In this document: piece by piece, positions 19,344-51,994 of the stretch
Numbering within the stretch: the stretch's first letter is position 1
Layout: each line of letters opens with the position of its first letter
From: a virus
Taxonomy: Duplodnaviria; Caudoviricetes
Strand: one strand, 5' to 3'
Virus record (IMG/VR): IMGVR_UViG_3300032213_002204
Location: 1 to 58,005 of that record
DNA: 58,005 nt
The notes under the pieces: generated by a model
What the model saw: the letters and a program-made list of their open reading frames with translations, nothing else
Told to the model about the DNA's origin: nothing
Databases searched by the model: none
Translations under genes and position numbers: made by a program

Positions 19344-20105
19344 ATGACTTACCTCAGTAATGATAGCGATCTATTTGAATATGATCCAGAAGAAGATATT
19401 TCTACTCCAGACCTAGAAGAGATTAAAGATAATACTACTAAAAAAAAAACGAATGTTGACGATTTTCTTTCTCAACACAAAGATTTACTAGGTGTCTTAC
19501 AGACTTCTTCTGAACAATTATTAGACGAAAATAAAATTCGTTTAGCTACAGGCCTCCATGCAGCGACTTCTCGCTTCTTCGCTAAGATTGGACCGCCTAC
19601 TTTTGACAAATCAGTTTCAGTTGTTTTAGATAAGTTATCTAATGGAGATTTTTCTTTAATAAATACTTACTACCGGACAGAAGCTTTAATTATACAAAGA
19701 CTTTTATTTATTAGTTTAATGAATACTATTCTTGGTCTTGATTCTGATGAAAAGTCTGAAGATTCTTTTTCTGTAAAAAATCTTCTTGAAGCCTTGGAGT
19801 TTGAAAATGTTGACGATCATATCAAAATATTTTATCAGACATCCCTTAGCATCTGTCAACATACTTTAGTTCACGACAGAATTGTTTATCAACATCTTGG
19901 TGATCGCTTAAATATGCCCGTCAATCCAGATCTTATTGATCCACATTATTCTATTGATATTACCAAGTTAAATAATCCAGTAGTTAATGACTACGCAGAA
20001 AATGCCTATGCCTCAATCATGACAAGCATTGCTCAAGATGGTGTCCTTGAAAAACTCAAAGATACTTTCGGAATACAGATAGGTTATTACTCTAATGAAA
20101 AATAA
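19344..20105 (+). CDS. hypothetical protein
   Basis: 253 aa ORF. Confidence 0.7.
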   Translation: MTYLSNDSDLFEYDPEEDISTPDLEEIKDNTTKKKTNVDDFLSQHKDLLGVLQTSSEQLLDENKIRLATGLHAATSRFFAKIGPPTFDKSVSVVLDKLSNGDFSLINTYYRTEALIIQRLLFISLMNTILGLDSDEKSEDSFSVKNLLEALEFENVDDHIKIFYQTSLSICQHTLVHDRIVYQHLGDRLNMPVNPDLIDPHYSIDITKLNNPVVNDYAENAYASIMTSIAQDGVLEKLKDTFGIQIGYYSNEK

Positions 20106-20550
20106 ATTTTTTAAAAAGATACCTAAATTATTTTGGACCGTATCGAGCCTTGCTGCAGTAGCTGCAATTAACTATGCCTTAATTCCTACTCCATTTGTTT
20201 TTATTGCCCTTATGGTGCTTCTTGTCCATGAGTTGGCTCATTACTTTATGGCTAAAAAATTAGGAGCAGAAGTTACTCTTCCTGTATTCATTCCTTTACC
20301 TTTTATTGCCATAGCCTTTACCAAGATTAAAGGTTTATCCAGTAAATCAAAAATGAAAGTTGCATTGACGGGACCTATTACTGGATTCATTACGGCCTTA
20401 TTGCTTGTTATCCTTAACTCTATATTTAAAATTATATCTCCCGTAGCTTTGATTGTCTTAGCTATGGGTGAAATATTATTTAACTATATCGGCAATGACG
20501 GTAAGAAATATCGTTCTGCAAAGAAAGACATTATATTATGCACTTGTTAA
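20095..20550 (+). CDS. minimal M50 (site-2 protease-like) membrane metallopeptidase
   Basis: LLVHELAHYF (HExxH), VALTGP, distal NDG; hydrophobic. Confidence 0.75.
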   Translation: MKNKFFKKIPKLFWTVSSLAAVAAINYALIPTPFVFIALMVLLVHELAHYFMAKKLGAEVTLPVFIPLPFIAIAFTKIKGLSSKSKMKVALTGPITGFITALLLVILNSIFKIISPVALIVLAMGEILFNYIGNDGKKYRSAKKDIILCTC

Positions 20551-20759: not shown

Positions 20760-20961
20760 TTCTTTTCTTGAAGATTCCTATTTTGACATTCAGGGTTTAT
20801 CCCCTGGATCATTAGGCTCAAGCATAGATGAGCAATATCTAGCTAGAGTTCTTACAAAGTTAGCGATAGGATCTGCCACAGTATGGTGGTCTTTACTAGA
20901 AGTTAAAGATTTTCTTATACTTCGCAAAAAGTCTAAAGGATTAAAAAATGACCCATTCTGA
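20689..20961 (+). CDS. hypothetical protein
   Basis: ORF track; probable start at MTRK after GGAG. Confidence 0.5.
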   Translation: MEILKMTRKIRRQQKKQELQSRVNSFLEDSYFDIQGLSPGSLGSSIDEQYLARVLTKLAIGSATVWWSLLEVKDFLILRKKSKGLKNDPF

Positions 20962-21352
20962 AAACTCCCCTAAACCATCTAATACTTCTATAGATTCTTT
21001 TAACTTTTCTTTTTCCCTTCTAGATAAAGCTCGTGAAGATATACAATCTGATTATGATTCTTTATCTCAACGCATTGAGACTATTGTCGATTCTGAAAAA
21101 TTTTATGTAAATAACTTTCCAGTTCTTAAACAAATTCTTATGATTGGCGCTAAAAAGAATGATCTTAAAAAATTATCTAAAGCCCTTTCTAGATTGTCCG
21201 AACTTGTTGAAATACATTCTCAGCTTGAAGACAAACTAAGCGTTATGAATACTCTTGCTGATCAACCTCATTGGTTCACTTCTACCTTTGGTGATTTCTC
21301 TAAAGAGATTGATGCTGGTATTGAAAGTATATTTAGAGACTTAGAAGATTAA
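20948..21352 (+). CDS. coiled-coil hypothetical protein
   Basis: AAGGA SD. Confidence 0.6.
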   Translation: MTHSENSPKPSNTSIDSFNFSFSLLDKAREDIQSDYDSLSQRIETIVDSEKFYVNNFPVLKQILMIGAKKNDLKKLSKALSRLSELVEIHSQLEDKLSVMNTLADQPHWFTSTFGDFSKEIDAGIESIFRDLED

Positions 21353-21384: not shown

Positions 21385-22779
21385 ATGCAAAATGTTAACT
21401 ATACATTTATTAACAACGAAGGCAACTTTGTCTTTCGTTCTAATATCAATTCATTTGGCTTAGACCATGTAACTGATAAAGACGTTACTTCTTTTTATAC
21501 TAATTTTTCTTCTTCATCTTATTTTGACACTGGCTTATTGCCTGTGGATGGTACTGGTTTACTCTCTATTAGAAAAGCTGGCAATCACACTCAGATTGCT
21601 TATCAGCATGCTCCCGGTAAATACTATATTAACTGGGGTTCCTATGAAGGCGACCATGAAGCTAGGAAGTATTATGTAGCTCAGCCTTACCGTATTGTTG
21701 TTGCTGACTTACTTAATGGCAATATATATGGCGCTAGAACTTACTACAGTCCAACGCCCATCACCTATCCACAAGCTCCTCTGTATCATGTTAATCTTCC
21801 CAATATTAACTGTAAAGGATATAGAGGAAATAGCGTTGGATGGATATGCCTTTATCATAATGAAGATATCTCAGCTTATCCATTCAATGAAAAACTTGTT
21901 AAAATCTTAGATCGCTGCTCAGGTACTGAAACCTATAATGATAATAACATGAGTGAAACTGATGGTCCATGTTTTTATCGTGAAAACTATAAGCCTAATT
22001 ACTTAACTAATCCTCAATATTGGCAAGACTATTCAGACCAAAATGGTTATGAATGGACTTTAGATCCAGAACTTTGGATTCCAATTCTAGTCGAAGGCAG
22101 AGACAATCAAGATAAACATTATTCTAATGGCCAACCTTTGACATTCGCTGATGCAATCATTGGCAATTACCAATGTTATTACACCGACAATTTAATTCCT
22201 AAGCCTGTCAATCGCATCGTCAGATCAGATTATTCTTTAAATTCTAATTTAGTTTTTGAATGGTTCAGAAACTCTTACAATGAATCGCAACAATCACAAC
22301 AACCTCAACCGTCTATAGATCCTTACTCTAGTAGTTTAGCTGTTAAAGAAACTCTTTCTTTGGCTGCTCCTGCTTTTGTAAATCAACAAGACGAAGACGA
22401 AGATGAACAAGAGGATGAAGACTCTTGGTATTGTGAATCTTGTCATGAAACTTTTTCTGAATCTAATCATAAACCAGTACTTGATTACAACTCAAGATAT
22501 ACTTGTCAAGACTGTATTGATGAGTCTTATTCATTTGCCGTGAATACTCAATCCTATCATCATGATGATGATGTTTTATGGCTTAGTCTCAGTGAAGTAT
22601 ATATTTTCCCTGATACTTTAACATATGCCCTTGAATATAAAATCTGCACTATTTGCAGTCAAGGAATGTATTACAATCATAAAGACTTTAATTCTTTTAT
22701 GCCACTCACAGTTACGTATCCTGATACATGCCAAACTTGCATTCATACACTGACCAATCCTTCCGAACAACTATTTTGA
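21385..22779 (+). CDS. prokaryotic E2-like protein (Prok-E2 family D / PRTRC-B-like) with Cys-rich C-terminus
   Basis: QPYRIVV...PLYHVNLPNIN...GWICL; acidic linker; four CxxC pairs; adjacent to JAB, E1 and Ubl. Confidence 0.65.
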   Translation: MQNVNYTFINNEGNFVFRSNINSFGLDHVTDKDVTSFYTNFSSSSYFDTGLLPVDGTGLLSIRKAGNHTQIAYQHAPGKYYINWGSYEGDHEARKYYVAQPYRIVVADLLNGNIYGARTYYSPTPITYPQAPLYHVNLPNINCKGYRGNSVGWICLYHNEDISAYPFNEKLVKILDRCSGTETYNDNNMSETDGPCFYRENYKPNYLTNPQYWQDYSDQNGYEWTLDPELWIPILVEGRDNQDKHYSNGQPLTFADAIIGNYQCYYTDNLIPKPVNRIVRSDYSLNSNLVFEWFRNSYNESQQSQQPQPSIDPYSSSLAVKETLSLAAPAFVNQQDEDEDEQEDEDSWYCESCHETFSESNHKPVLDYNSRYTCQDCIDESYSFAVNTQSYHHDDDVLWLSLSEVYIFPDTLTYALEYKICTICSQGMYYNHKDFNSFMPLTVTYPDTCQTCIHTLTNPSEQLF

Positions 22780-22818: not shown

Positions 22819-24489
22819 ATGTCTGAACAAATTTCTTTTGATGACCTTCCCGTCATCTGGATGGAAGATGGTCTTCCTTGTTTCATGGGAGACCGTGCTG
22901 ATATCTGTGACCTCGCAGAATCCTTTGGATTTAATATATACTATCTATTAGCTAATCAAGCTAAAGAGGTCAAGCCTACACCTCCTCCGTCTAACACCAC
23001 TTATGGCAAACCCGCTGCTACTGCCTTGGCTGTTGCTCCTCCTACTTTTGTGAGAAATTCTCAAATCTATCGAGTAGTTAATAACTTTGTAGGTAGAACA
23101 GTTACTGTTTGTTCTCCTTCTTTTCCTCAATCATTTATTGATGTTGAAGAAGAAGCTACTTATTCGATGCCTGCTATTCCGCATATCTTAATCGATAAGC
23201 TAGATCAGTTCTTTAGACTCGTTGATGCACAACACGGTGCTGAATCTATTGTCATGCTTACCTATGACACCACTAAAGAAGGATCAGAAGGATGGGGCAT
23301 TCTTGTTCCCGATCAAACCAATACTTCTGTTCACTGTAATTATGATCCAGACAGCATCGCTCAAGTTAAGCCTGATGAAGTTATGATTGTAGGATCAGTT
23401 CACAGTCATCCTGGAATGTCTGCGTATGCTTCCGGAACAGACCATGCTGATCAAGCAGATTTTGATGGAATCCATATTACTTTTGGCTGGCAAAAGACAG
23501 TTAACAATGGTGCTACTCAATACTACGCTGAACTTCAAATGGCTGGCAAAGCCTATAAGCTTGACATCGAAGATGTCTTTGAAGAATATATTATTGAAAA
23601 AGCTCCTGATCCTGAAGTAGTAGGTTGGACTGAAAAAGTAAAAAAAGCCAACCCCCCCAAAGCGGGGGGTTCGGTTACGGTAACTACTGGGGCGGCGTAT
23701 CAGGCCCCTCGTCCAAACACGAATCAAGGGACTCCGGCCTCTACGGTAGCTGGTACTCTCCCTAAGAATCAATATTATATAGATTATCCTTCTCATATTA
23801 AAAATATAACACATGATGTTATAGATATTGACAATGATAATATTCTAGTTTGCGAGGTTGTTGGTAACTATGAAAACAAAACCTACAATTGTCCAGGTTG
23901 CTTCTCCATTATTGCTAAGCATGATGTGTATGCTAGTAACTGTTGCCCTTTTTGCGATATACCCTTATCTGAACAGGATACAACAGCAGACCAAATAATT
24001 TGGGATATGTTTCAATATTGCAATGATAGAAAAATTCCCACTAATGCTTCTCTGTATTTACTAACTGCAGATCTTGACAATTCTCCAATGCTTCTTAGGC
24101 TTACTGCAGAAACAATGGACGCTTATTCAGATTCTGCTTGGATAGATATAGAAGATAAAGCTTTAGATGTCGATCCTAGGTTGACGCTCTGCTGCAGCAT
24201 GATTCCAGAAAACTGCATGTGCCCTACTCAGGTTGTCACTTATGACTCTATGGATTTTGATCAATTCATGGGCAAGTCTTCAGTTTATGTCGCTAGTTCT
24301 GCTTGTGAAGTATGCAATTATTACTACGATACAAATTGTCCTAGCTATAGCAAAGCTATTGTAGATTTTAAATCAAATACAAATCAATCAGACAACAAAG
24401 ATAAATACGAAGATTCTATCGATGGAGTCAATTGCGACTTCTTTTCCGAATACACCTATTCTACTTCCGAGGATATTTATAATTCATGA
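22819..24489 (+). CDS. JAB/MPN+ metallo-isopeptidase with Cys-rich C-terminal extension
   Basis: upstream Glu (AESIV), IVGSVHSHPGMSAYASGTD (HxHx7Sx2D), GIHITFG. Confidence 0.9.
   Translation: MSEQISFDDLPVIWMEDGLPCFMGDRADICDLAESFGFNIYYLLANQAKEVKPTPPPSNTTYGKPAATALAVAPPTFVRNSQIYRVVNNFVGRTVTVCSPSFPQSFIDVEEEATYSMPAIPHILIDKLDQFFRLVDAQHGAESIVMLTYDTTKEGSEGWGILVPDQTNTSVHCNYDPDSIAQVKPDEVMIVGSVHSHPGMSAYASGTDHADQADFDGIHITFGWQKTVNNGATQYYAELQMAGKAYKLDIEDVFEEYIIEKAPDPEVVGWTEKVKKANPPKAGGSVTVTTGAAYQAPRPNTNQGTPASTVAGTLPKNQYYIDYPSHIKNITHDVIDIDNDNILVCEVVGNYENKTYNCPGCFSIIAKHDVYASNCCPFCDIPLSEQDTTADQIIWDMFQYCNDRKIPTNASLYLLTADLDNSPMLLRLTAETMDAYSDSAWIDIEDKALDVDPRLTLCCSMIPENCMCPTQVVTYDSMDFDQFMGKSSVYVASSACEVCNYYYDTNCPSYSKAIVDFKSNTNQSDNKDKYEDSIDGVNCDFFSEYTYSTSEDIYNS
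23640..23765 (+). other. candidate -1 ribosomal frameshift cassette with a 39-codon alternative tail
   Basis: in-frame A AAA AAA heptamer; AACCCCCC/GGGGGGTT hairpin just downstream; -1 frame reads SQPPQSGGFGYGNYWGG...WYSP*. Confidence 0.6.
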
Positions 24490-25247
24490 ACTCACAACCA
24501 AAACGCTTTATACTAGTTGGAGCAGGTGGCATTGGCACTTGGCTTGCAGCAGGTCTTGTTAGACTTCTTGAATGGAAGTTTCCTGGATCTGCTCTTATCA
24601 TCGTTGACGGTGATACCTATGAGGAAAAAAATAAAGAACGACAAGACTTTACTAAGCTTGGCAATAAAGCCGTAGTTAAAGCTACTGAACTTGTTCCTCA
24701 ATTTCCCAAAACTACAATTATACCTGTAGCTAAATGGGTAGTGGCCGATGATTATTCTGGTGTCACTGACGAAGAAAGTCCTAAGATTACAGCTTCTCAA
24801 CTTATACGTGAAGATGATGTAGTCTTTGCAGTCGTTGACAACTTTGCTGCTAGAAAAATTATATTTGATGCTGCCGCTAAGTTGAACAATATTGACGTCT
24901 TTACTGGCGGTAATGATGATGACCTTTTTGGTTCTATCTATCATTACCAAAAGCGAGATGGTTACGAAGTAACCGTTCATCCAGCTGAGTTCCATCCAGA
25001 ATATCACAATCCTCCTGACAAGAATCCCGGTGAGCTTTCTTGCCAAGAGCGTTCAGAGATATCAGGAGGCACTCAACTACTTGCTACTAACATGGCTGTT
25101 TCAGCCTACATTCTAGGACGAGTTCAGAAAACAATCGTGTCCAATCAAAGTCCTGAAGAAACAGAGATTTTCTTTGATCTTGGTCTCGGTAAGTCCGAAC
25201 CCTATAATAGAACCACATCAGCTCTCAATCAACCAACCACAGTATAG
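24486..25247 (+). CDS. E1-like ThiF-family adenylyltransferase
   Basis: VGAGGIG, VDGDTYEEKNKERQ, VDNFAARK, candidate catalytic Cys in LSCQ. Confidence 0.92.
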   Translation: MNSQPKRFILVGAGGIGTWLAAGLVRLLEWKFPGSALIIVDGDTYEEKNKERQDFTKLGNKAVVKATELVPQFPKTTIIPVAKWVVADDYSGVTDEESPKITASQLIREDDVVFAVVDNFAARKIIFDAAAKLNNIDVFTGGNDDDLFGSIYHYQKRDGYEVTVHPAEFHPEYHNPPDKNPGELSCQERSEISGGTQLLATNMAVSAYILGRVQKTIVSNQSPEETEIFFDLGLGKSEPYNRTTSALNQPTTV

Positions 25248-25260
25248 TTAGGAGAATATC

Positions 25261-25515
25261 ATGGAAGCATCAAACGCATCGAACGCTCAGCCAAATCGTT
25301 CAACTGGTATGGCGAATATTCGCTATGGAGTTTACAACCAGCCCAGTAACATTGGTGGAAAGTCCATTCGTGAAGTTCGCGAACAGTTCAGCAAAATTTG
25401 GGGCATTCCCTCTGACGCAGTAGCTTACTGCGGCAAGGACAAGCTCGACGAGAACGCGGTTATTCAGCCAGGTCAAAACGTAGAGTTCCACCGCCGTGCA
25501 GGCGAAAAGGGCTGA
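25261..25515 (+). CDS. ubiquitin-like (beta-grasp) modifier protein
   Basis: GKSIREVR...GIP......LDENAVIQPGQNVEF pattern; exposed C-terminal RRAGEKG; follows E1. Confidence 0.85.
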   Translation: MEASNASNAQPNRSTGMANIRYGVYNQPSNIGGKSIREVREQFSKIWGIPSDAVAYCGKDKLDENAVIQPGQNVEFHRRAGEKG

Positions 25516-25528
25516 TTAACCCATATTC

Positions 25529-25568
25529 GGGGGAGGGTGCTGCTGGCATCCTCCCCCATATTTTTTTT
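25529..25568 (+). terminator. intrinsic terminator after the Ubl gene
   Basis: GGGGGAGGGTGC/GCATCCTCCCCC stem, then ATA and T8. Confidence 0.75.
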
Positions 25569-25603: not shown

Positions 25604-27214
25604 ATGTTTGACAAAATTAAATTAGGTTATCCTAATATCTGGATTAAGGATTCTGATTCTTCCAGAATTATAGATATCATTACTACTACTCTTCCTAGAG
25701 ATTTTTATACTATTGATTTCCTTTCTGGATTCTCATTGTATTCCAATAATGCTTGGAAGACTGTCTTGGTAGAAAATCCAGCCTTTCAGTTAACTGGCGA
25801 AGACCAGTACATTTCCACCTTTGACCCTCAGGTTTCCTTAGATTATTTATTGCATAATCCTGACCGTCCCAAGAATCCCACAACTCTTATTATTGATGTC
25901 GTAGGTAAGCCCGACTCTGCTTTGGAAAACTATGGTTTATTTCTAAGTCATTTGAAATCTAAATATCGTCAAGCTTTTTGGCAAGATGACATGAGTCTTC
26001 TTCCACTGCAGTTTATTTTTATTTCAACACAGGATTGTCCGGAAGACTATCTTCCTTACTTTAATGTCAATGAAGACGTTATGCCCAATCCTCAAGAGCT
26101 AGCTACTATTGTTACTCATATTAATGAATCTGCACATGACCGCCTTCTCAATAACACTAGCGTCAAAGACGTTGTTAATGCCGGCATTGGACTCACCGAG
26201 TCTCAATTCATTGATCTTTGCTTAACGTCTATCGTTAATACTTCTCAACTTGATCCTAAATTCATTTACGATCAAAAGATGGCCAGCATTAAAAAGAATG
26301 GCATTCTAGAAATTATTAAACCCACTACTTCTTTTGCTGATATTGGTGGACTTAATAATATTAAAGATATCATTCGTCGAACCGCAGTACTCTGGAACGA
26401 TAAAGATCGAGCCAAATCTTTTGGAGTTACTCCTATCCGTAGACTTCTTATGGTTGGAGTTCCCGGCACTGGCAAATCAGCTATATGCCAGGCCACTGCA
26501 AATGAGCTTGGCTTAGACTTGGCACGTACAGGCATCAGTCAAGTTATGAACTCTTTCATTGGTCAATCAGAGGCCAACATGCGTGCCGTATTCAAACAGA
26601 TTAGACTTATGTCTCCCTTATGTGTTTGGATTGACGAGTTCGGTCGTGATCTTTCCGGCGGATCTAGTTCTTCCCATGTAGATGGTGGCACTACTGATCG
26701 TGTTCATGGTGAGTTCTTAACTGGTCTTCAGGAACTTCCAGAGGAAACATTCCTGCTTTGTGCAGCCAATCAACTAGAAGCTCTTCGTCCAGAAATGTTA
26801 CGCGCAGATCGCTTTGACAAAATTATGTTTGTTGGACTTCCTTCTCATGAAGAGCGTAAACATATTTTTCATATTCACTTAGATAAAATTGACACTGATC
26901 ATGATTATGATTATGATTCTTTGGCCGAAGCTTCTAAGTATATGACTGGTGCTGAGATTCTTTCTCTTATCCGTGAAACAAAATTCTATGTAGTTTCAGA
27001 ATCTCTTCGCCCTATAACTACCAAAGATATCCTTAGTTTTATTCCTAAAACCAAAAACACTATTTGGCTCAAACATAATGACATGGTTATGTCCATGTAT
27101 CAGTATGCCTTAGAGCAGTGGGATTGGGCCTCGACAGAACAAATGGAAGATGCTAGAATCATACTAGGAAAGTCTTCTGTTAAAAAACAAACGTCAACAA
27201 TTGCTTGGAAATAA
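25604..27214 (+). CDS. classical AAA+ ATPase (Ycf46/Cdc48-like)
   Basis: SFADIGGL, GVPGTGKS, FIGQSEAN, WIDE, AAN...PEMLRADRFD, TGAEI. Confidence 0.92.
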   Translation: MFDKIKLGYPNIWIKDSDSSRIIDIITTTLPRDFYTIDFLSGFSLYSNNAWKTVLVENPAFQLTGEDQYISTFDPQVSLDYLLHNPDRPKNPTTLIIDVVGKPDSALENYGLFLSHLKSKYRQAFWQDDMSLLPLQFIFISTQDCPEDYLPYFNVNEDVMPNPQELATIVTHINESAHDRLLNNTSVKDVVNAGIGLTESQFIDLCLTSIVNTSQLDPKFIYDQKMASIKKNGILEIIKPTTSFADIGGLNNIKDIIRRTAVLWNDKDRAKSFGVTPIRRLLMVGVPGTGKSAICQATANELGLDLARTGISQVMNSFIGQSEANMRAVFKQIRLMSPLCVWIDEFGRDLSGGSSSSHVDGGTTDRVHGEFLTGLQELPEETFLLCAANQLEALRPEMLRADRFDKIMFVGLPSHEERKHIFHIHLDKIDTDHDYDYDSLAEASKYMTGAEILSLIRETKFYVVSESLRPITTKDILSFIPKTKNTIWLKHNDMVMSMYQYALEQWDWASTEQMEDARIILGKSSVKKQTSTIAWK

Positions 27215-27223
27215 GGAACTATA

Positions 27224-27859
27224 ATGTCTGAATCATATGATAATATTGATGAATTTCTTGCCACTCTAGATAACGATGGAGCTAAAGAAACTTTAAAAAA
27301 TATAGATAATAAAGATTATCAACAGGATCTATATAAGAAATGGTTTAGATCCAAGACCCAAAGCGGATTCTTGGCTATTCGTCCTTGGCATCAAGCTTTA
27401 AAGATGAAGATTGATATCGGCAAAACTTCTTCAGAAGGAAAGCTTCAAAGCAGCACTGCAGTCTTTGTTGACTCAGTCGACTTTGCTGCCTATTTGCGAA
27501 GCGTAGCTAACGGCACAGCTACTGTAAATTATCCTCAAAACGAAAGAACAGGAGCTCCAACTAATGAAGCTTTTGTTTCTTATGGTGGTGCTACTATAGA
27601 CGGTAAGCCTGTTTCAAGAATATTCAAAGCTCATTACTGGCAGTCCGCTGAGACTACAGACGAAACTGCTTTTGTTTGGAAGTGTGGCCACTTTGCTGCC
27701 CGCAAATCTGATAGCGGAGCTTTTATTCCTGACATGAAGTCTCCTTTATCTATTGATCAAATTAAAGTAACTCGTCAAGACATATGCTCTATTGCATATC
27801 TTATGGATCTTTCCATGAATTCCCATGTCACTAACAATCAAGATTGGTATGAAATATGA
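27224..27859 (+). CDS. hypothetical protein
   Basis: AAGGA SD; 211 aa. Confidence 0.7.
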   Translation: MSESYDNIDEFLATLDNDGAKETLKNIDNKDYQQDLYKKWFRSKTQSGFLAIRPWHQALKMKIDIGKTSSEGKLQSSTAVFVDSVDFAAYLRSVANGTATVNYPQNERTGAPTNEAFVSYGGATIDGKPVSRIFKAHYWQSAETTDETAFVWKCGHFAARKSDSGAFIPDMKSPLSIDQIKVTRQDICSIAYLMDLSMNSHVTNNQDWYEI

Positions 27860-28242
27860 GCGATGACAATGAACACCTAGATCAGCATACTGCTGAATTC
27901 ATGACTAAGTTTTTCCAAGATATCATTGGGGGCTTAGCTTCTCAAATAGAAGATCGTCTTTCTGTCTTGGAAACTTCTATTGAAGCTATTGAAAAGCAAA
28001 TTGCAACTTTAATTATAAGCTATGGCGAACAAGCAGTTTTTACTGAAGCTCTTGTTGGCCAAATGGCTTTCGCTTCCGATGAAGCTCGTAAAGCATTCCA
28101 TGAGGCATTGAGTGAATCTCGTAAAAATATGTTGGAGGTTATGCAGAATGCATCCAAAGGAATCTTGGCTGATGAGAATCCAGGAGTTGCCTCAGCCCTT
28201 ACAAACATGGCTACAGAAAAGTTATCTGACACAGACCTCTGA
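27856..28242 (+). CDS. coiled-coil hypothetical protein
   Basis: ATGA coupling. Confidence 0.65.
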   Translation: MSDDNEHLDQHTAEFMTKFFQDIIGGLASQIEDRLSVLETSIEAIEKQIATLIISYGEQAVFTEALVGQMAFASDEARKAFHEALSESRKNMLEVMQNASKGILADENPGVASALTNMATEKLSDTDL

Positions 28243-28435
28243 TGGTTCTTGTGTCTTATTCGTAACTCTTTCTAATCAAGATTTTTTAAACAACTTTTCA
28301 TACTTAAGTCAGATATATCCTTTAGTTAAAGATATATATCCTGACGCTACATCACTGTATGTTACTTTCAGTTCTTTCCAGGATTTTATTAAAAGTGGGA
28401 AAATGGAAGTCTATTCTATCGAGGCAACAAAATGA
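28112..28435 (+). CDS. hypothetical protein (true start probably about 28208)
   Basis: 3' part fills the gap and is coupled to the next gene. Confidence 0.4.
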   Translation: MNLVKICWRLCRMHPKESWLMRIQELPQPLQTWLQKSYLTQTSDGSCVLFVTLSNQDFLNNFSYLSQIYPLVKDIYPDATSLYVTFSSFQDFIKSGKMEVYSIEATK

Positions 28436-28983
28436 CCATCATTCATCGATTCTCTGATTTGCATGAAATAAATAATTATATTTCATCTTCTATACATAAC
28501 CATTCTATGGTTCAATTACATGTTAATAATATTCAAGAGTATGCAGAAAGATTTTCTTTAAGTCCTTCTCTTATTCATGATATTCAAAACAGTAGTTATG
28601 AATTAATAACTTATCATTTATATATAGGATCTAAAACTTCTTATCGCAAGAATGTTCATAGCAATATTCCTAATGTTCTATATAAGAAGATATATAACTG
28701 TTTTAAATTAAATGGTTATATTCGTGAGGCAAATGGTACCTGCGTAGTTCTTTGTCTTAAGCCGATTACTCAAGAAGTCTATGATCAGATTTCTCATTCT
28801 TCTGATCTAGACAATCAAAAAGTTTTAAATCAACTTATAGATAACTTCTCAAATGTATCTGCTGATAATCAGTATTACATTGATTACATTAAAGCTCTTG
28901 AAAGCAAGTGCGATATTCTTTCTTTTGAAAATGAGAATTTAAAAACTCAAATACATAACACTAAAATATCTACATGGTATTAA
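28432..28983 (+). CDS. hypothetical protein
   Basis: 183 aa; C-terminal coiled coil. Confidence 0.65.
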   Translation: MTIIHRFSDLHEINNYISSSIHNHSMVQLHVNNIQEYAERFSLSPSLIHDIQNSSYELITYHLYIGSKTSYRKNVHSNIPNVLYKKIYNCFKLNGYIREANGTCVVLCLKPITQEVYDQISHSSDLDNQKVLNQLIDNFSNVSADNQYYIDYIKALESKCDILSFENENLKTQIHNTKISTWY

Positions 28984-29963
28984 ATTTTGAACTTCATACA
29001 TTAATGCCTTTTCAAAGTCTCAATATATTTAAACAGGAGATTCCTTTTATGTCTACTCATTATATTATTAATCAATTAAGTTCTACTTCTTTATCATTTA
29101 CTTTTCCTGTTTTAGTTCACTCGGAATCAAGTTCTGATGAGCCACCTAGTTATACCATTTATATTAATCATATGGAATCTATTCCTGATGGTGAAATAGT
29201 TTGGGATTATTTTGGATCCGGCGAGACTTACTGCAATTTAAATAAAGTAAATCTTATTCAGGCTAAAGACAATTTTTCTCAGTTGTATTCTAAGTATATG
29301 ATTGCTCATACTAGATTAGGACTTCAACCCCAAGTAGTTGGCCTAACTCCTTACGAATTTGCCCGTTCCGTTGAAGCTCCTTCTGGAAATTTAGCTTGGT
29401 CATTTACTTTGTCAACATTCTTTATTTTTGAGAAAAAAGCTACTGATGACGCTATATGCATCTATCTAACCAGGAAAAACGAAAAGACTACGCTTGTCTC
29501 CAAGCATTATCGTTTTGCTAACATTCCTAATAATGCATGCAATTGCTCTAGTCCTTCTGTTCCGAATTCTCAAACTAAAAATGTTTCTTGCCATTTTAGT
29601 TCCCAAAACTCAGACTGTCCTTTTTATGAGTATGATTCACAAATAGTTTATTCTCAGGATGTCACTCCAATTAACTCATCTCAAGTTTCTTCTTTTGATT
29701 TAGTTTATTATTTATCTATTCAAGGATTTCATACTTTTAAAATTAATAATTCTTCTCTTGGCGTTATTGTTAATACCCTAAAGTATCCATCTACTTTTTC
29801 TTACGATGATTCTTTAGTTGAAGCTATCTCAATTTTCAACCAATATTTGGACAGCTATTCATCTTCTGATTTTTCACTCTCTGAAGTCACAAGAGATACA
29901 CCTCAAGATACAAGCAAAGACATCGAAAAATCTAGCTATATCACTTCTCTTATTTCCTCTTAA
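28974..29963 (+). CDS. hypothetical protein (probable start MSTH after AGGAG)
   Basis: ORF track; CNC...CH...C cluster. Confidence 0.65.
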   Translation: MVLNFELHTLMPFQSLNIFKQEIPFMSTHYIINQLSSTSLSFTFPVLVHSESSSDEPPSYTIYINHMESIPDGEIVWDYFGSGETYCNLNKVNLIQAKDNFSQLYSKYMIAHTRLGLQPQVVGLTPYEFARSVEAPSGNLAWSFTLSTFFIFEKKATDDAICIYLTRKNEKTTLVSKHYRFANIPNNACNCSSPSVPNSQTKNVSCHFSSQNSDCPFYEYDSQIVYSQDVTPINSSQVSSFDLVYYLSIQGFHTFKINNSSLGVIVNTLKYPSTFSYDDSLVEAISIFNQYLDSYSSSDFSLSEVTRDTPQDTSKDIEKSSYITSLISS

Positions 29964-29974
29964 GGAACTACAAC

Positions 29975-31564
29975 ATGCCTAATATATATAACGAAAAGCT
30001 ATATACTACTATTGATAACGTTAACACCAAATCTTATAGTGTATCTACATCTTATGATCCAGTATTTAAAGAAGTTGCTTTTGTAGCTAAAAGATTTCCC
30101 CAGCTTTCATTTGAAGAAGCTTCTCTTTATCATACTTATGCACATGGTCAACATTTGGCTAATCTTGAATTTTCACAAATATCTGATGCCAATTTGCTAC
30201 CTCTTCTCACTGTATCAATTCAAGAAAAACTTTCTTTTGATACTAGTGCACTTATAGCGCAAGCTAATAATAATTCCACTACCCCTGTTATTTCAGATAC
30301 ATACCCTATAGCTACTCGATACATTGACACTAATGGCACTTATTACATTGAGCGACCACCATTCCAAACTGAAGTGGATTACAAAATAGGGGGCGCTAGC
30401 TCTAGAACCAAAAGAAGACTTACCAATATAAAGGTATGGATTCCTTGGACTCTTTTTGTTATTAATCCTAAAACTCAAAAAAGTGCCATGTACTTTTCCC
30501 ATAAGTCATTGACCAATATGGAAGATGTATACTTTGCTACTTATCTTCCTAATACTTATCAAGATGGCAGTATTTGTTATTCGCATAGCATTTCTTCAAT
30601 GCCCGAATATAATGAATTTTCTTCTTTGAGCGTTTCTCAAGTCTATGCTTTTTATATTAATGAGTATTTTGCTGGAGCATGGAACTCTGATTTATCTAAT
30701 CCATGGTCTACAGTGTTTCCTAAGGTATACACAATTATTCGTGATTATTTTCCCGAAGATAAAGATTCTTATCCGATGATGAGAAGATTGTTTGATCCTT
30801 CGGTTGAAGAACTACTTAATATATTTGGAAACAAAACTTCCTATATTAATTCAATTATTTCTTCAAAACAAAATAATTCAGTTAAATCCCTGGCTCACGC
30901 ATCTGCTGTTCCTTTAGAATATTGTGATAGCACTTACGCTCACCACTATATTCTTACGATCTTATCTACTTTTTCTCTTGAGGAAATACTTAATTTACTA
31001 GAAGAGTATTCTTCTATTCACACTCTTGTAACAAATGATTCTGATCATCCATACTGGAAATATTTTAAAAGATATTTCTATCAATATAAAACTAACTTTC
31101 AGCATTATGGCTCTTTCTCAAATGTATTAGAAACTGTACTTGGAAGCTTTTCTTCTTTGTCTCCTACCAATTCAATAGTTGAGATACCTCATGTTCTAAG
31201 AACTTTTGCTTCTGAAAATGAAATTACTGCGCCATATAATTTTATTGACACCCGCTTATTAATTATTAATAACGTTTCCGATACTAGCTCTTGGTCTTTT
31301 AGTCTTAGCTCCACTGCCTTTGATCAGTCTTACTGTTATATACAGGATAACTTTACTCCTTATGAGTACAAGAAGTTATTAGATAAAATCATTAACGATA
31401 GTAAAATAGATCCTCACGCATGTTCAAATAACATTTATTGTTATGATTTTTCGACTAAAGAAATACATGTAATTCCTTATTCAATTCAAACTTACATGGA
31501 TCTACTAAAGCTTTCTATCAATAATCAACTAGATATTGTAGGTTATATTAATGCAACCGTCTGA
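29975..31564 (+). CDS. Prok-E2-D-like protein (paralogue 2)
   Basis: IERPP...IPWTLF...MYFS...LPNTYQDGSICY...WNSDL. Confidence 0.55.
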   Translation: MPNIYNEKLYTTIDNVNTKSYSVSTSYDPVFKEVAFVAKRFPQLSFEEASLYHTYAHGQHLANLEFSQISDANLLPLLTVSIQEKLSFDTSALIAQANNNSTTPVISDTYPIATRYIDTNGTYYIERPPFQTEVDYKIGGASSRTKRRLTNIKVWIPWTLFVINPKTQKSAMYFSHKSLTNMEDVYFATYLPNTYQDGSICYSHSISSMPEYNEFSSLSVSQVYAFYINEYFAGAWNSDLSNPWSTVFPKVYTIIRDYFPEDKDSYPMMRRLFDPSVEELLNIFGNKTSYINSIISSKQNNSVKSLAHASAVPLEYCDSTYAHHYILTILSTFSLEEILNLLEEYSSIHTLVTNDSDHPYWKYFKRYFYQYKTNFQHYGSFSNVLETVLGSFSSLSPTNSIVEIPHVLRTFASENEITAPYNFIDTRLLIINNVSDTSSWSFSLSSTAFDQSYCYIQDNFTPYEYKKLLDKIINDSKIDPHACSNNIYCYDFSTKEIHVIPYSIQTYMDLLKLSINNQLDIVGYINATV

Positions 31565-32750
31565 AATCTCCTTTTTGCGCAATGCTCATTATTCTTTTGG
31601 TGATACGTCTGCTGTCTTGATGGCGGAATCCCAAATCATTGATACAGTATCCCATGCCTCCGTTGAAATTTCTTCCGAAAATGAGCAAGTACTTTCTCGC
31701 TTATCTTCATTTATTATGAATTTAAATTCTGATAATATCTTTTCTAAGGATACGGGCATTATGCCTCCCGGAGTTCTTCATATTGATTCTAATCTTATTA
31801 TCTTTGAAAGACCTCCTCAATATCAAAACATTCAAATAATTCCTCAAATCGTTGATCATATAGATTACGACAGGCATGACACTAAGCTTTACAGACTGCC
31901 AATTCCCTGGCAGTTGTATGTGTGTACCTACAGTATTTATGGTGGTAGATACTATCCTAATTCTGTAAGAATGTATTTCATGAATTCATCCATAACTGGA
32001 TCTGATATCTCAAATCATAGAGTGTATCTTCCCACTCTTCCCAACTTTTATACTTCAGGCCTTCTGTGCAATCCCATGTATGCCTCCATGGAAGATGTTG
32101 AACGCTATGACAATAGCATAGCTGGAGTTATCCAAGCTTCCTATGACTGGATCTGGAATAGTGGAACTAATCTAGATTTAACAATGAATATTGTTGAAGC
32201 TTATTTTCAGTTACTCCCCCTAAAGGCCGAGGGCATTCCTACTGTCTTTGACAAAGACTTAACCTCCTCTGCTTCGCAGGTTCATATATCTTCTTACTTT
32301 TTAGACTTTTCTTCTATTGACTTTTTCTTTAAGCTTTGGGAACAGTTTAATATTCATGAAGTTAGTTCTTTAGCTTGGCCTAATCCTTCTACTTCGGACA
32401 GAGTTGCTACCGAAGTTCGCAGCGTTGGAGAATCATTTCTTCAAGACTTTTTTGCAGAAAATAATATAACAGATCCTCCTTATCGTGTTGAAACTAGTGA
32501 ATGCGATTGTCAATGTGATGACGAAGAATGTGACTGTGAATGTGAATGTGATCTAAGTGAACAAAATGTTTACCTTTACAATCAAGCCCAATATGGAAGA
32601 TACGTTCGTTCAAGACTTTCTTCTATGACAACATGTGGTAAAGTTCTAGATCACATTCGTGCTGCCAATCACGCTTCCAATGCGTATGATGAATATACTA
32701 TATTGAATATTTCTCGAGCAATTATTGCAAATTCATCACTTACAATTTGA
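31551..32750 (+). CDS. Prok-E2-D-like protein (paralogue 3) with a Cys/acidic tract
   Basis: MPPGVL...FERPP...LPIPWQLY...MYFM...LPNFYTSGLLCNP...TNLDL. Confidence 0.6.
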   Translation: MQPSEISFLRNAHYSFGDTSAVLMAESQIIDTVSHASVEISSENEQVLSRLSSFIMNLNSDNIFSKDTGIMPPGVLHIDSNLIIFERPPQYQNIQIIPQIVDHIDYDRHDTKLYRLPIPWQLYVCTYSIYGGRYYPNSVRMYFMNSSITGSDISNHRVYLPTLPNFYTSGLLCNPMYASMEDVERYDNSIAGVIQASYDWIWNSGTNLDLTMNIVEAYFQLLPLKAEGIPTVFDKDLTSSASQVHISSYFLDFSSIDFFFKLWEQFNIHEVSSLAWPNPSTSDRVATEVRSVGESFLQDFFAENNITDPPYRVETSECDCQCDDEECDCECECDLSEQNVYLYNQAQYGRYVRSRLSSMTTCGKVLDHIRAANHASNAYDEYTILNISRAIIANSSLTI

Positions 32751-50377: not shown

Positions 50378-50998
50378 TTAACCTAGTATTTCGTCTATAG
50401 CTTCCCTAATGGTCCAACTCTCACCAGTAGTCAGTGGCACACTATCTAGTGGCATCGCTTGCCAGTTAAATCTAGTGATAACTTTACCACTTCTAGAAAC
50501 AATAAACTTTTCCCAATTATGAGGAATTCTTGCTAAGTAATCTCCCTCAAGATTTTGTCCATCCTCAGCCTCCTTGGAGCCGTCTGCTCTAGGTGCAGAG
50601 ATATTTCTTTTAACTTTACCCTTAAGGTAAGAGTACAATACATGCTCATCAGGACCATTGACTTTTATTTTTTCTGTTATAGGAAATGTAACAAATGGAT
50701 AATATTGTTTAATAAAAGATAATATTTCTTCATTTTTTCCCGGTTCCATTTGTCCAAACTGATTACATGGTACGCCAACCACGGAAAATCCTCTGTCCTT
50801 AAACTCATCATGGACTTTTTGCAGTTGCCAAAATTGTCTTAACGTTCTAGCATATGACCAAAACTTACTGCAGTGGGGAGTGTATCCATATTTAGAAACT
50901 ATATTAATAAATAATGTAACGCTGCCGTGAAATTGGTCAAGTAAATGTTCTTCTCTATTTAATCCTGATATTTGAATATCATATATGTTTTCCGTCAT
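50378..50998 (-). CDS. glutathione peroxidase family protein, atypical active site
   Basis: LFINIVSKYG, GFSVVGVPCNQFGQMEPG, VTFPI.EKIKVNG..EH.LY.YLK, NWEKFIV. Confidence 0.88.
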   Translation of the reverse strand: MTENIYDIQISGLNREEHLLDQFHGSVTLFINIVSKYGYTPHCSKFWSYARTLRQFWQLQKVHDEFKDRGFSVVGVPCNQFGQMEPGKNEEILSFIKQYYPFVTFPITEKIKVNGPDEHVLYSYLKGKVKRNISAPRADGSKEAEDGQNLEGDYLARIPHNWEKFIVSRSGKVITRFNWQAMPLDSVPLTTGESWTIREAIDEILG

Positions 50999-51279
50999 AC
51001 CTTAACTCTCCCATTTAAATTAACACTAGCAAAATCATCTATCATTATAGTGCCAATAATGATATCGTTATCAATATCACAATTAAAATATAGCTTACAT
51101 TCAAATGGAATGTCTGTTTTAATAATTCCATTAAAATTATTTTCTGATAAATTATAGGTAATAAAATCAGATGAACCACGCTCAATTGATACCGTACATT
51201 TTGTATCCGAGAGCGTTAAATCCGCCAACTCTTGACCAAATGGGGTTTGTATTTCAATTGCATATATATTAGTATTCAT
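50995..51279 (-). CDS. hypothetical beta-rich protein
   Basis: coupled ORF. Confidence 0.55.
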   Translation of the reverse strand: MNTNIYAIEIQTPFGQELADLTLSDTKCTVSIERGSSDFITYNLSENNFNGIIKTDIPFECKLYFNCDIDNDIIIGTIMIDDFASVNLNGRVKV

Positions 51280-51994
51280 ATGGAACCTTAGGTATTATCG
51301 GTTCATTCAATTCTATTAACCCGTCATGTCTTGGTCCAATTTCTTCACCCTTTTCATTTAGGCCAGTTCTGATACCATTCATCCATGTCCATGGTTCTTC
51401 TTTTAATTTTTTCATTTTTGCCTCACTATACGCTACCCTAGAGCTAATAAGCTCTGGTTTATCCCAGAGATTTTCCACATCAATAGACACATTTGGCAAA
51501 ACATTATTTGAATAGATGTAAAAAAATGCAAAGGGCATCCCTGCTGGGAATACTATTTCTTCTTTTTCCTTGGTAATCTTCCAGCTCATTTGCACTTCAT
51601 CAGGCCACCAGTAACTAGGTATGCTAGCCGTCAAGGGAGTGGCTCCATCTAAGAAATAATTGGGTGAACCAGTTAGCCACGTATCATATCCATGCTCAGT
51701 ATTAAATGCCCAACCAATATGAAAGTCTATCATACCAATTTTATTACAATTTGCGATAGTTCTACCTCTAAAAATATCTCCCTCTAATATTCTTGGAACA
51801 GCATTTCCACCATCCCATATCAGTTTAACATCCTGTTGAAGAACGACTTCCCAACCATTAACATTGGCAGCCGATAAGGGAAGGCATCTGTATGCATGTT
51901 TGTTGTAGGTGTCGTCCATCCAGTCTCTTTTTAGGCGTGACTGTCTAATCTCTGGAGAGATTTGATGCGTTCTAACTAGCGTTAACTTTGTCAT
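51269..51994 (-). CDS. DUF6065-family protein
   Basis: RDWMD.T..KHAYRCLPL..AN..GW, GSPNYF. Confidence 0.75.
   Translation of the reverse strand: MTKLTLVRTHQISPEIRQSRLKRDWMDDTYNKHAYRCLPLSAANVNGWEVVLQQDVKLIWDGGNAVPRILEGDIFRGRTIANCNKIGMIDFHIGWAFNTEHGYDTWLTGSPNYFLDGATPLTASIPSYWWPDEVQMSWKITKEKEEIVFPAGMPFAFFYIYSNNVLPNVSIDVENLWDKPELISSRVAYSEAKMKKLKEEPWTWMNGIRTGLNEKGEEIGPRHDGLIELNEPIIPKVPYEY

Follow-up and report, generated by a model that had tools for sequence, protein, structure and literature searches.

Does a large uncultivated phage encode its own enzymes for tagging targets with a ubiquitin-like protein (Ubl)? The question is raised by two tandem open reading frames (ORFs) in a stretch of viral DNA of 58,005 nucleotides (positions 1 to 58,005 of IMG/VR record IMGVR_UViG_3300032213_002204; Duplodnaviria, Caudoviricetes), which we call the window. 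Their products, named A (ORF 29975-31564) and B (ORF 31551-32750), follow a group of genes for a third candidate protein, X (protein of 21385-22779), a JAB/JAMM metalloprotease-like protein, an E1-like enzyme, a putative Ubl and an AAA+ ATPase. We propose that A and B are divergent E2/UBC paralogues of a phage Ubl block formed with these partners, and put the probability of this reading at roughly 0.55. Structure matches, sub-threshold matches to the family Prok-E2_D and an E2-type spacing between an Asn and a Cys make it probable that their common core has a divergent E2/UBC fold. That A and B would also be true Ubl-carrying E2 enzymes is close to an even call, leaning slightly towards yes.

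Two tandem proteins share a conserved core

The A and B ORFs, overlapping by 14 nt, are read in the same direction (+ strand). A (29975-31564, 529 aa) begins with an alpha/beta domain (residues ~1-99); there follow an E2-like core (~100-252), with helices to ~345, and a C-terminal helical and alpha/beta region. In B (31551-32750, 399 aa) the N-terminus (1-40) is disordered, the E2-like core spans ~42-226, and the C-terminal region is helical apart from an intervening linker (~305-344) that is acidic, partly Cys-rich and variable across relatives. A zinc site in the Cys-rich stretch (~318-335) was considered and rejected: since only 18 of 57 relatives have at least four Cys and the model is of low confidence there, we read it as part of a variable acidic linker. 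Homologues drawn from a 5.8-billion-protein collection are full-length (56 for A and 57 for B), and none of them carries a precomputed Pfam domain.

The initial annotation had listed a series of motifs common to the two tandem proteins, and every one is found: IERPPFQ, WIPWTLFV, AMYFSH, LPNTYQDGSIC and WNSDL in A; FERPPQY, PIPWQLYV, RMYFMN, LPNFYTSGLLC and TNLDL in B. The conserved core of A is encoded at 30272-30730 (+ strand; residues 100-252) and includes ERPP at 126-129, PW at 157-158, LPN at 191-193, Cys201 (codon 30575-30577) and WNxDL at 236-240. That of B lies at 31728-32216 (+ strand; residues 60-222), with ERPP at 86-89, PW at 119-120, LPN at 163-165, Cys173 (codon 32067-32069) and NLDL at 207-210. 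Direct comparison of A with B by BLASTP gave 27.7 bits (E 6e-4, 26% identity over 133 columns), and profile-profile comparison of the A family (56 sequences) with the B family (57) gave a probability of 98.4% (E 8.1e-15, 160 columns). This match spans residues ~89-252 of A and ~50-222 of B, a shared core of ~155 residues; neither profile-profile comparison nor a hidden Markov model (HMM) of the core detected any similarity of A and B outside it. Judged from these alignments, A and B appear to be true paralogues with a common core and dissimilar flanking domains, in agreement with the earlier description of paralogues carrying different appended domains.

In a joint core alignment of 44 sequences (the window and IMG/VR loci) nine columns are invariant, namely E, P and P of ERPP, P and W of PW, the Asn of LPN, a Cys eight residues on, and the Asn and Asp of an Asn-x-Asp motif. 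A wider set of 232 proteins, which match the A/B core profile at E 1e-5 or better, shows no exception at the Glu or second Pro of ERPP, at either residue of PW, at the Asn of LPN, or at the Asn or Asp of NxD; the first Pro of ERPP is kept in 228 and the Cys in 231. Among 1.84 billion representatives, the core domain is found in 1,425 clusters at 50% identity with E 1e-3 or better, in 615 at 1e-10 and in 303 at 1e-30.

Evidence for an E2-like fold

AlphaFold2 models of the full-length proteins were built from separate alignments and reached a predicted local distance difference test (pLDDT) value of 84.3 and a predicted template modelling (pTM) score of 0.68 for A, and 80.0 and 0.76 for B. Compared with 48,161 chains (by VIA-align for A), both models retrieve chains of E2s or ubiquitin E2 variants (UEVs) almost exclusively, with low scores; in A the residues matched to E2/UEV chains are ~100-345 by VIA-align. 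The best structural matches are Ubc8, UbcH7, UbcH5c, Pex4 and UBC9, and PDB entries 7to3, 8hsb and 9eav, from CBASS Cap2/Cap3 and Bub systems, are also matched, with scores below those of the eukaryotic E2s. Four further matches at E 1e-3 or better came from Foldseek against BFVD, all of them uncharacterised proteins of uncultured phages (438, 241, 621 and 461 aa).

The UBC fold is composed of an N-terminal helix, an antiparallel beta-meander, an active-site loop and C-terminal helices. The elements of the B model run in a collinear order (helix, beta-meander, LPN loop, Cys, short helix, helix, NxD loop, helix), and these features of the fold are present in the models, with low scores only. 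In both models Asn-x7-Cys stands behind the final strand of the core. With eight residues from Asn to Cys, the spacing in A and B is that of the HPN...Cys signature of E2s, in which the Cys is catalytic. Asn-x-Asp, the other invariant loop, comes after the first long helix that follows the Cys and lies between two helices; E2s have an Asn/Asp-bearing loop after helix 2, near the active site.

A search with the HMM of Prok-E2_D (PF14460; gathering threshold 25 bits) had been suggested in the initial annotation as a check, and its outcome is divided. Matches were found for 9 of the 57 B relatives (best E 0.0015) and for one of the 56 A relatives (E 0.042), all below threshold; the window copies of A and B gave none at E up to 1. 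Prok-E2_D is the sole Pfam family that matches more than one B relative. A single A relative out of 56 matched UQ_con (E 0.17), and no other E2 family, nor any other Pfam family, had a recurrent match among A and B relatives. When five whole phage records of the clade were searched in six frames, Prok-E2_D gave one candidate in each, three of the five being scored: B homologues at E 0.002 (14.8 and 14.9 bits) and an A homologue at E 0.026, as placed by coordinates and frame length. UQ_con, Prok-E2_A and Prok-E2_B had no match in any of the five records at E up to 10. By sequence, then, A and B seem nearest to the bacterial Prok-E2_D group yet outside every curated family.

A third, more distant candidate

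The protein encoded at 21385-22779 (+ strand), X, has 464 aa with LPN at 138-140, Cys155 and a C-terminal region containing CxxC pairs, and is a distant E2-like candidate. Its family, far better conserved than those of A and B, comprises 460 homologues; 45 of them, taken as a sample, are 46-87% identical to the window copy, and H-x-N-L-P-N-x-N-C...V-G-W-I-C is invariant. The LPN...G..C core of A and B had been claimed for X as well. LPN and G-x-x-C are indeed there; the spacing is not, as the Asn-to-Cys distance is 15 (N140...C155) vs. 8 in A and B. Aligning the three had been proposed; in profile comparisons X is the more distant one. Its profile aligns collinearly with that of the B family (47.5% probability, E 1.9e-4, 108 columns) and, at 45.2% (E 2.2e-4, 101 columns), with that of the A/B core, LPN falling on LPN and Cys155 on the A/B Cys by way of a 7-residue insertion; there is no profile-profile signal with the A family alone.

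Run over the ORFs of the window, the core HMM found X as its best non-self match (E 0.0014; next ORF 0.22). Over 4,887 frames of 50 related loci it gave 110 matches at E up to 1, of which 91 are A or B, 19 are X (out of 47 X homologues present) and none is any other protein. X also lies near phage clusters of the ESM Atlas that carry Prok-E2_D on 13-20% of members (score 0.94), which we take as a lead only; searched directly, the Prok-E2_D model matched none of 45 X relatives, and Pfam, PHROG, PADLOC and NCBIfam scans of window X returned nothing usable. Judging by the alignments, X is probably a third, distant paralogue of A and B. Its C-terminal part (window 22420-22779, residues ~346-464) contains four CxxC pairs (C350/353, C374/377, C421/424 and C449/452), whose eight Cys are invariant in five cases and near-invariant in the other three. 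The pairs could make up two zinc ribbons or, alternatively, a binuclear module of RING-like type joined to the E2-like domain.

A conserved block with E1-like, putative Ubl and JAB genes

A search with the B alignment yielded 38 IMG/VR loci, whose gene order is X-JAB-E1-Ubl-AAA-u1-u2-(u3)-(u4)-A-B-HTH-ORF-SSB-UDG (HTH, helix-turn-helix). A and B are present in all 38, and E1, Ubl and AAA in 34; in the other four the contig ends less than 4.5 kb upstream of B. JAB (33 of 38) and X (30 of 38) are limited by the locus edges. A second set of 50 loci, found with the E1 alignment and overlapping heavily with the first, gives the reciprocal picture: A and B are carried by all 46 loci that reach at least 6.5 kb downstream, and the other four stop earlier. 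The co-occurrence of A and B with E1 and Ubl, proposed beforehand as a check, is seen in every related contig that reaches far enough, within a synteny that is clade-wide. The source contigs reach 180-268 kb, one with terminal repeats, and the A and B genes sit in a conserved block of an uncultivated phage clade of ~180-270 kb.

Immediately downstream of X, the JAB/JAMM metalloprotease-like protein (22819-24489, + strand; 556 aa, HSHPGMSAYASGTD) matches Pfam Prok-JAB at E 3.1e-5 and 24.3 bits (cut-off 25 bits). Its JAMM motif is intact, and of 25 distinct homologues 24 have it too, the other one being a truncated frame; its C-terminal part (23800-24489) is Cys-rich. The E1-like adenylating enzyme (24486-25247, + strand; 253 aa) has a single ThiF domain (Pfam ThiF, 5.7e-12, 45.7 bits) and a single invariant Cys186 in GELSCQ; over 21 sequences of 67-97% identity S185-C186-Q187 is invariant and the motif reads GE[LM]SCQ. 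The next gene (25261-25515, + strand; 84 aa) encodes a protein ending in ...EFHRRAGEKG at the stop codon, with EFHRR[AS]GEKG among homologues and a C-terminal Gly that is invariant in 22 of 22 distinct ones. It is a putative Ubl by position, size and this Gly. The partners look functional, with the Cys of the E1, the C-terminal Gly of the putative Ubl and the JAMM motif all conserved. For a complex of E1, Ubl and B residues 40-300, with B as the partner, structure prediction gave a median score of 0.50, but a control with E1 replaced gave 0.62; the outcome weighs neither way on binding.

A terminator-like GC-rich hairpin with a T-run (25529-25557, + strand; 13-bp stem, nine G-C pairs) lies 14 nt past the Ubl stop codon, and in most related loci strong hairpins of differing sequence are found at this position. 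This suggests a conserved terminator, an attenuator or an mRNA-stabilising end of an X-JAB-E1-Ubl unit; therefore X-JAB-E1-Ubl may be one transcription unit, and AAA...A-B another one or read-through. Beyond it lies an AAA+ ATPase of the classic Cdc48/PAN/FtsH type (25604-27214, + strand; 536 aa, Pfam AAA 1.1e-22), which matches NCBIfam CDC48 (2.2e-36) and PAN (7e-32), both under cut-offs, as well as PADLOC IetA (3.5e-28); its N-terminal ~230 aa have no assignment. Between this gene and A are u1 (27224-27859, 211 aa), which is highly conserved, u2 (27856-28242), which is conserved (each in 37 of 38 loci), and u3 (28432-28983, 19 of 38) and u4 (28974-29963, 22 of 38), the fastest-evolving genes of the block; all are on the + strand. 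Pfam, PHROG, PADLOC and NCBIfam scans of u1-u4 (27224-29963) gave no family match, and the role of adaptors or substrates considered for them in the initial annotation is unsupported. The nearest named Atlas cluster of u1 carries Whirly (ssDNA-binding) on 17% of members, with a score (0.83) below the lead threshold.

If A, B and X are E2s of this block, the E1 would adenylate the C-terminal Gly of the Ubl and take the Ubl onto Cys186, from which transthioesterification would hand it on to X, A or B at C155, C201 or C173, respectively. The differing appended domains would steer it to different phage or host targets, the JAB protein would remove or edit conjugates, and the AAA+ ATPase may process tagged proteins. 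In its most elaborate form this becomes a complete phage-encoded cascade in eukaryotic style, with one E1, one highly conserved Ubl, three E2-like proteins, JAB and a Cdc48/PAN-like AAA+ ATPase, in which A and B would be fast-evolving, target-facing E2s that serve to take over the host or to build the replication or assembly apparatus; we hold this version to be possible and rather doubtful.

Alternative explanations

Two sets of findings weigh against A and B as E2 enzymes of a Ubl block, the first concerning Ubl transfer and the second the fold. As to transfer, the equivalence of Cys173 and Cys201 to the E2 catalytic Cys is one that we infer from motif spacing and element order. The Cys itself is replaced by Ser at the position of Cys173 in one protein (P0058, a B homologue of 403 aa, 83-84% identical to window B); this is the sole Cys-to-Ser member of the B family and may be a sequencing error or a natural variant. 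The putative Ubl has no family match in Pfam, PHROG and NCBIfam scans, and the terminator-like hairpin separates X-JAB-E1-Ubl from AAA...A-B.

It is conceivable, at a probability we regard as low, that A and B have a UBC fold and do not carry the phage Ubl, serving instead as E2-variant-like adaptors, as decoys against host defence of the Bil or CBASS-Cap2 type, or in other Cys chemistry. The fold evidence is identical for this explanation, the hairpin agrees with it, and X alone would complete a Bil-like set of four genes. Divergence is compatible with it too. Relatives of A share 17-81% identity with the window copy and those of B 24-84%, as compared with 46-87% (X), 67-97% (E1) and 61-96% (Ubl), in sequence sets that differ; the faster divergence of A and B fits target-facing components of a conjugation system and fits variable partners of a non-carrier equally well. 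Inactive E2 variants usually lose the Cys. In the A/B core, on the contrary, the Asn is kept in 232 and the Cys in 231 of 232 proteins, together with the invariant Asn-x-Asp loop, a pattern of conservation that points to catalysis.

As to the fold, neither model had a PDB match by Foldseek at E 1e-3 or better, and profile searches of PDB sequences with the A family, the B family and the core returned chance rows or none. Window A and B match no Pfam, PHROG, PADLOC or NCBIfam family. Every Prok-E2_D score is at most 15 bits, below the 25-bit cut-off, and because all scores are below threshold A and B are not members of that family by the Pfam criterion. The models have six or seven strands; canonical E2s have four. 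We know of no E2 counterpart of the ERPP and PW motifs. At the position of the HPN His the relatives of A and B have Leu, Tyr, Phe, Ile or other residues, and no His is invariant in the core across the 44-sequence alignment and the 232 relatives; the Pro of LPN is variable in the B family. HTH, SSB and UDG accompany A and B just as strictly (38 of 38 loci). The whole region is syntenic in the clade, and therefore co-occurrence is weak, non-specific evidence of a functional link to E1 and Ubl.

These points would be expected if the E2 likeness were spurious, that is, if A and B had a separate alpha/beta fold, belonged to a new Cys-dependent enzyme or a structural or replication protein, and stood near E1 and Ubl through early-region synteny. 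We consider this improbable, about to the same degree as the non-carrier role. Two independent models retrieve E2 and UEV chains almost exclusively out of 48,161, the Asn-x7-Cys spacing is that of E2s, and the only recurrent Pfam family is an E2 family, which in whole phage records lands on A and B homologues only; other E2 and Pfam families do not recur. The missing His is also less telling than it may appear. Bacterial E2-like operon classes 6c and 6d are likewise reported to be without the classical E2 His (Iyer et al. 2006; PMC1779556), so the loss does not place A and B outside the superfamily. The description of A and B as E2-like, as first proposed, is upheld by the structure matches and the sub-threshold Prok-E2_D matches, and falls short in that no family is matched at threshold. 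That the ORFs are not real genes or the motifs arose by chance can be dismissed, given full-length homologues (56 and 57) with identity down to 17-24%, 1,425 core clusters at 50% identity, conserved synteny and confident models.

Comparison with known systems

The nearest known counterparts are bacterial operons with E1, E2, JAB and Ubl genes (Prok-E2 families, Bil and CBASS Cap2/Cap3) and, at the level of the fold, eukaryotic E2s. Bacterial E2-like proteins in E1/E2/JAB/Ubl operons were described by Iyer, Burroughs and Aravind (2006; PMC1779556). With these the phage block shares E1-like, JAB and Ubl partners, the last with a C-terminal Gly, the absence of the classical E2 His (reported for classes 6c and 6d), and Prok-E2_D as the only curated family matched repeatedly by A and B relatives. 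Unlike Prok-E2_D proteins, A and B are phage-encoded, large (399-529 aa), with extensive, lineage-specific extra domains and extra strands, and the E2-like genes occur in three copies per genome. To our knowledge ERPP, PW and NxD are not features of the Prok-E2_D family.

BilABCD (Bacterial ISG15-like) is a bacterial anti-phage defence system consisting of a Ubl, an E2, a JAB deubiquitinase and an E1 (Chambers et al., PMC10557695). X-JAB-E1-Ubl would be the same four-part set, with the E2 nature of X suggested by weak remote homology and the Ubl putative. A conserved C-terminal Gly is found in the Bil Ubl and in the putative phage one, and Bil needs no E3 (PMC10557695). The differences are considerable. 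The block is phage-borne and core to its clade, whereas Bil is a bacterial defence against phages; the Bil E1 is described there as multidomain (IAD, AAD and CYS), in contrast to the 253-aa single ThiF domain of the phage enzyme, and the Bil E2 as having a conserved Cys with a nearby His, in contrast to the A/B core and its lack of an invariant His (PMC10557695). Gene order also differs, and the phage block adds two E2-like genes and the AAA+ ATPase.

The phage E1 weakly matches the PADLOC E1-E2 models (E 6.5e-5), a likeness to CBASS Cap2/Cap3 and Bub operons. The E2s of those systems, however, are fused or dedicated to one E1 and one substrate, and no CD-NTase or Bub-type partner occurs in the phage block. 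Eukaryotic UBC-family E2s (UQ_con, PF00179) supply the best structural matches and likewise have several E2-like genes per E1 and Ubl, but A and B lack the HPN His, have a longer beta-sheet and come with no recognisable E3; UQ_con itself, as given above, was in none of the five phage records and matched one A relative. As to the PRTRC cassette of plasmids and integrative and conjugative elements, the phage JAB protein finds PRTRC protein A (TIGR03735, E 5.5e-4) and the E1 finds PRTRC ThiF (TIGR03736, E 1.1e-6), which are the best or near-best NCBIfam models for the two. Their scores are nevertheless far from the cut-offs (19.6 vs. 101.8 bits and 28.2 vs. 144.75 bits), A, B and X match no PRTRC model, and no ParB partner was seen.

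No X, A or B was found in GenBank phages (blastn with the A-B DNA, tblastn with X), and E1 is represented there by two distant ThiF genes only, one of them in Bacillus phage vB_BceM_WH1. In this cultured jumbo phage a JAB-like gene, gp215, lies directly upstream of the ThiF gene gp216 (the pair at record positions 182508-184817); gp215 matches Prok-JAB at E 0.0029 and the window JAB protein at 4e-5 (phmmer). No A, B or X homologue is near this JAB-ThiF pair.

Other features of the window and the clade

The window is phage-like, with a tail-fibre-like protein, a phage-type DNA helicase, SSB, UDG and many paralogues of 2OG-Fe(II) (2-oxoglutarate- and iron-dependent) oxygenases. The families of these oxygenases are matched by at least nine ORFs on the two strands between 41703 and 53525, an unusual expansion; the region includes a glutathione-peroxidase-like gene (50378-50998) and a DUF6065 gene (51269-51994). 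Just upstream of X, a small membrane protein gene (20095-20550, + strand; peptidase M50 match, E 5.5e-7, 29.6 bits) and an ORF at 20948-21352 are kept in many related loci.

A 22-kb contig binned in a Cyclobacteriaceae (Bacteroidota) metagenome-assembled genome (MAG) also carries the block and is the sole host hint, a weak one. The block is present as well on a 34-kb IMG/VR contig labelled GVMAG (giant-virus MAG), so the binning of the clade is inconsistent. One IMG/VR contig of 267,766 bp has two diverged X...UDG blocks ~215 kb apart, with B homologues of 356 and 393 aa; two related phages may have been joined in it by chimeric or concatenated assembly, other clade contigs being ~170-216 kb.

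Implications

Prokaryotic Ubl conjugation has so far been mainly a matter of bacterial anti-phage defence (Bil, CBASS Cap2) or of mobile-element cassettes of unknown role. Here the toolkit sits in the conserved core of a widespread phage clade of ~200 kb, with three E2-like genes. We found no description of such a phage module in the literature searched, subscription journals and supplements being outside its coverage. If active, the block would be a virus-side Ubl system and a natural case of one E1 and one Ubl serving several E2s with no recognisable E3. A and B would in that case stand for a large branch of the E2 superfamily that lacks annotation and could be given a family model of its own. 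The constant company of E1, Ubl and JAB suggests that the virus has its own protein-tagging system with several tagging enzymes.

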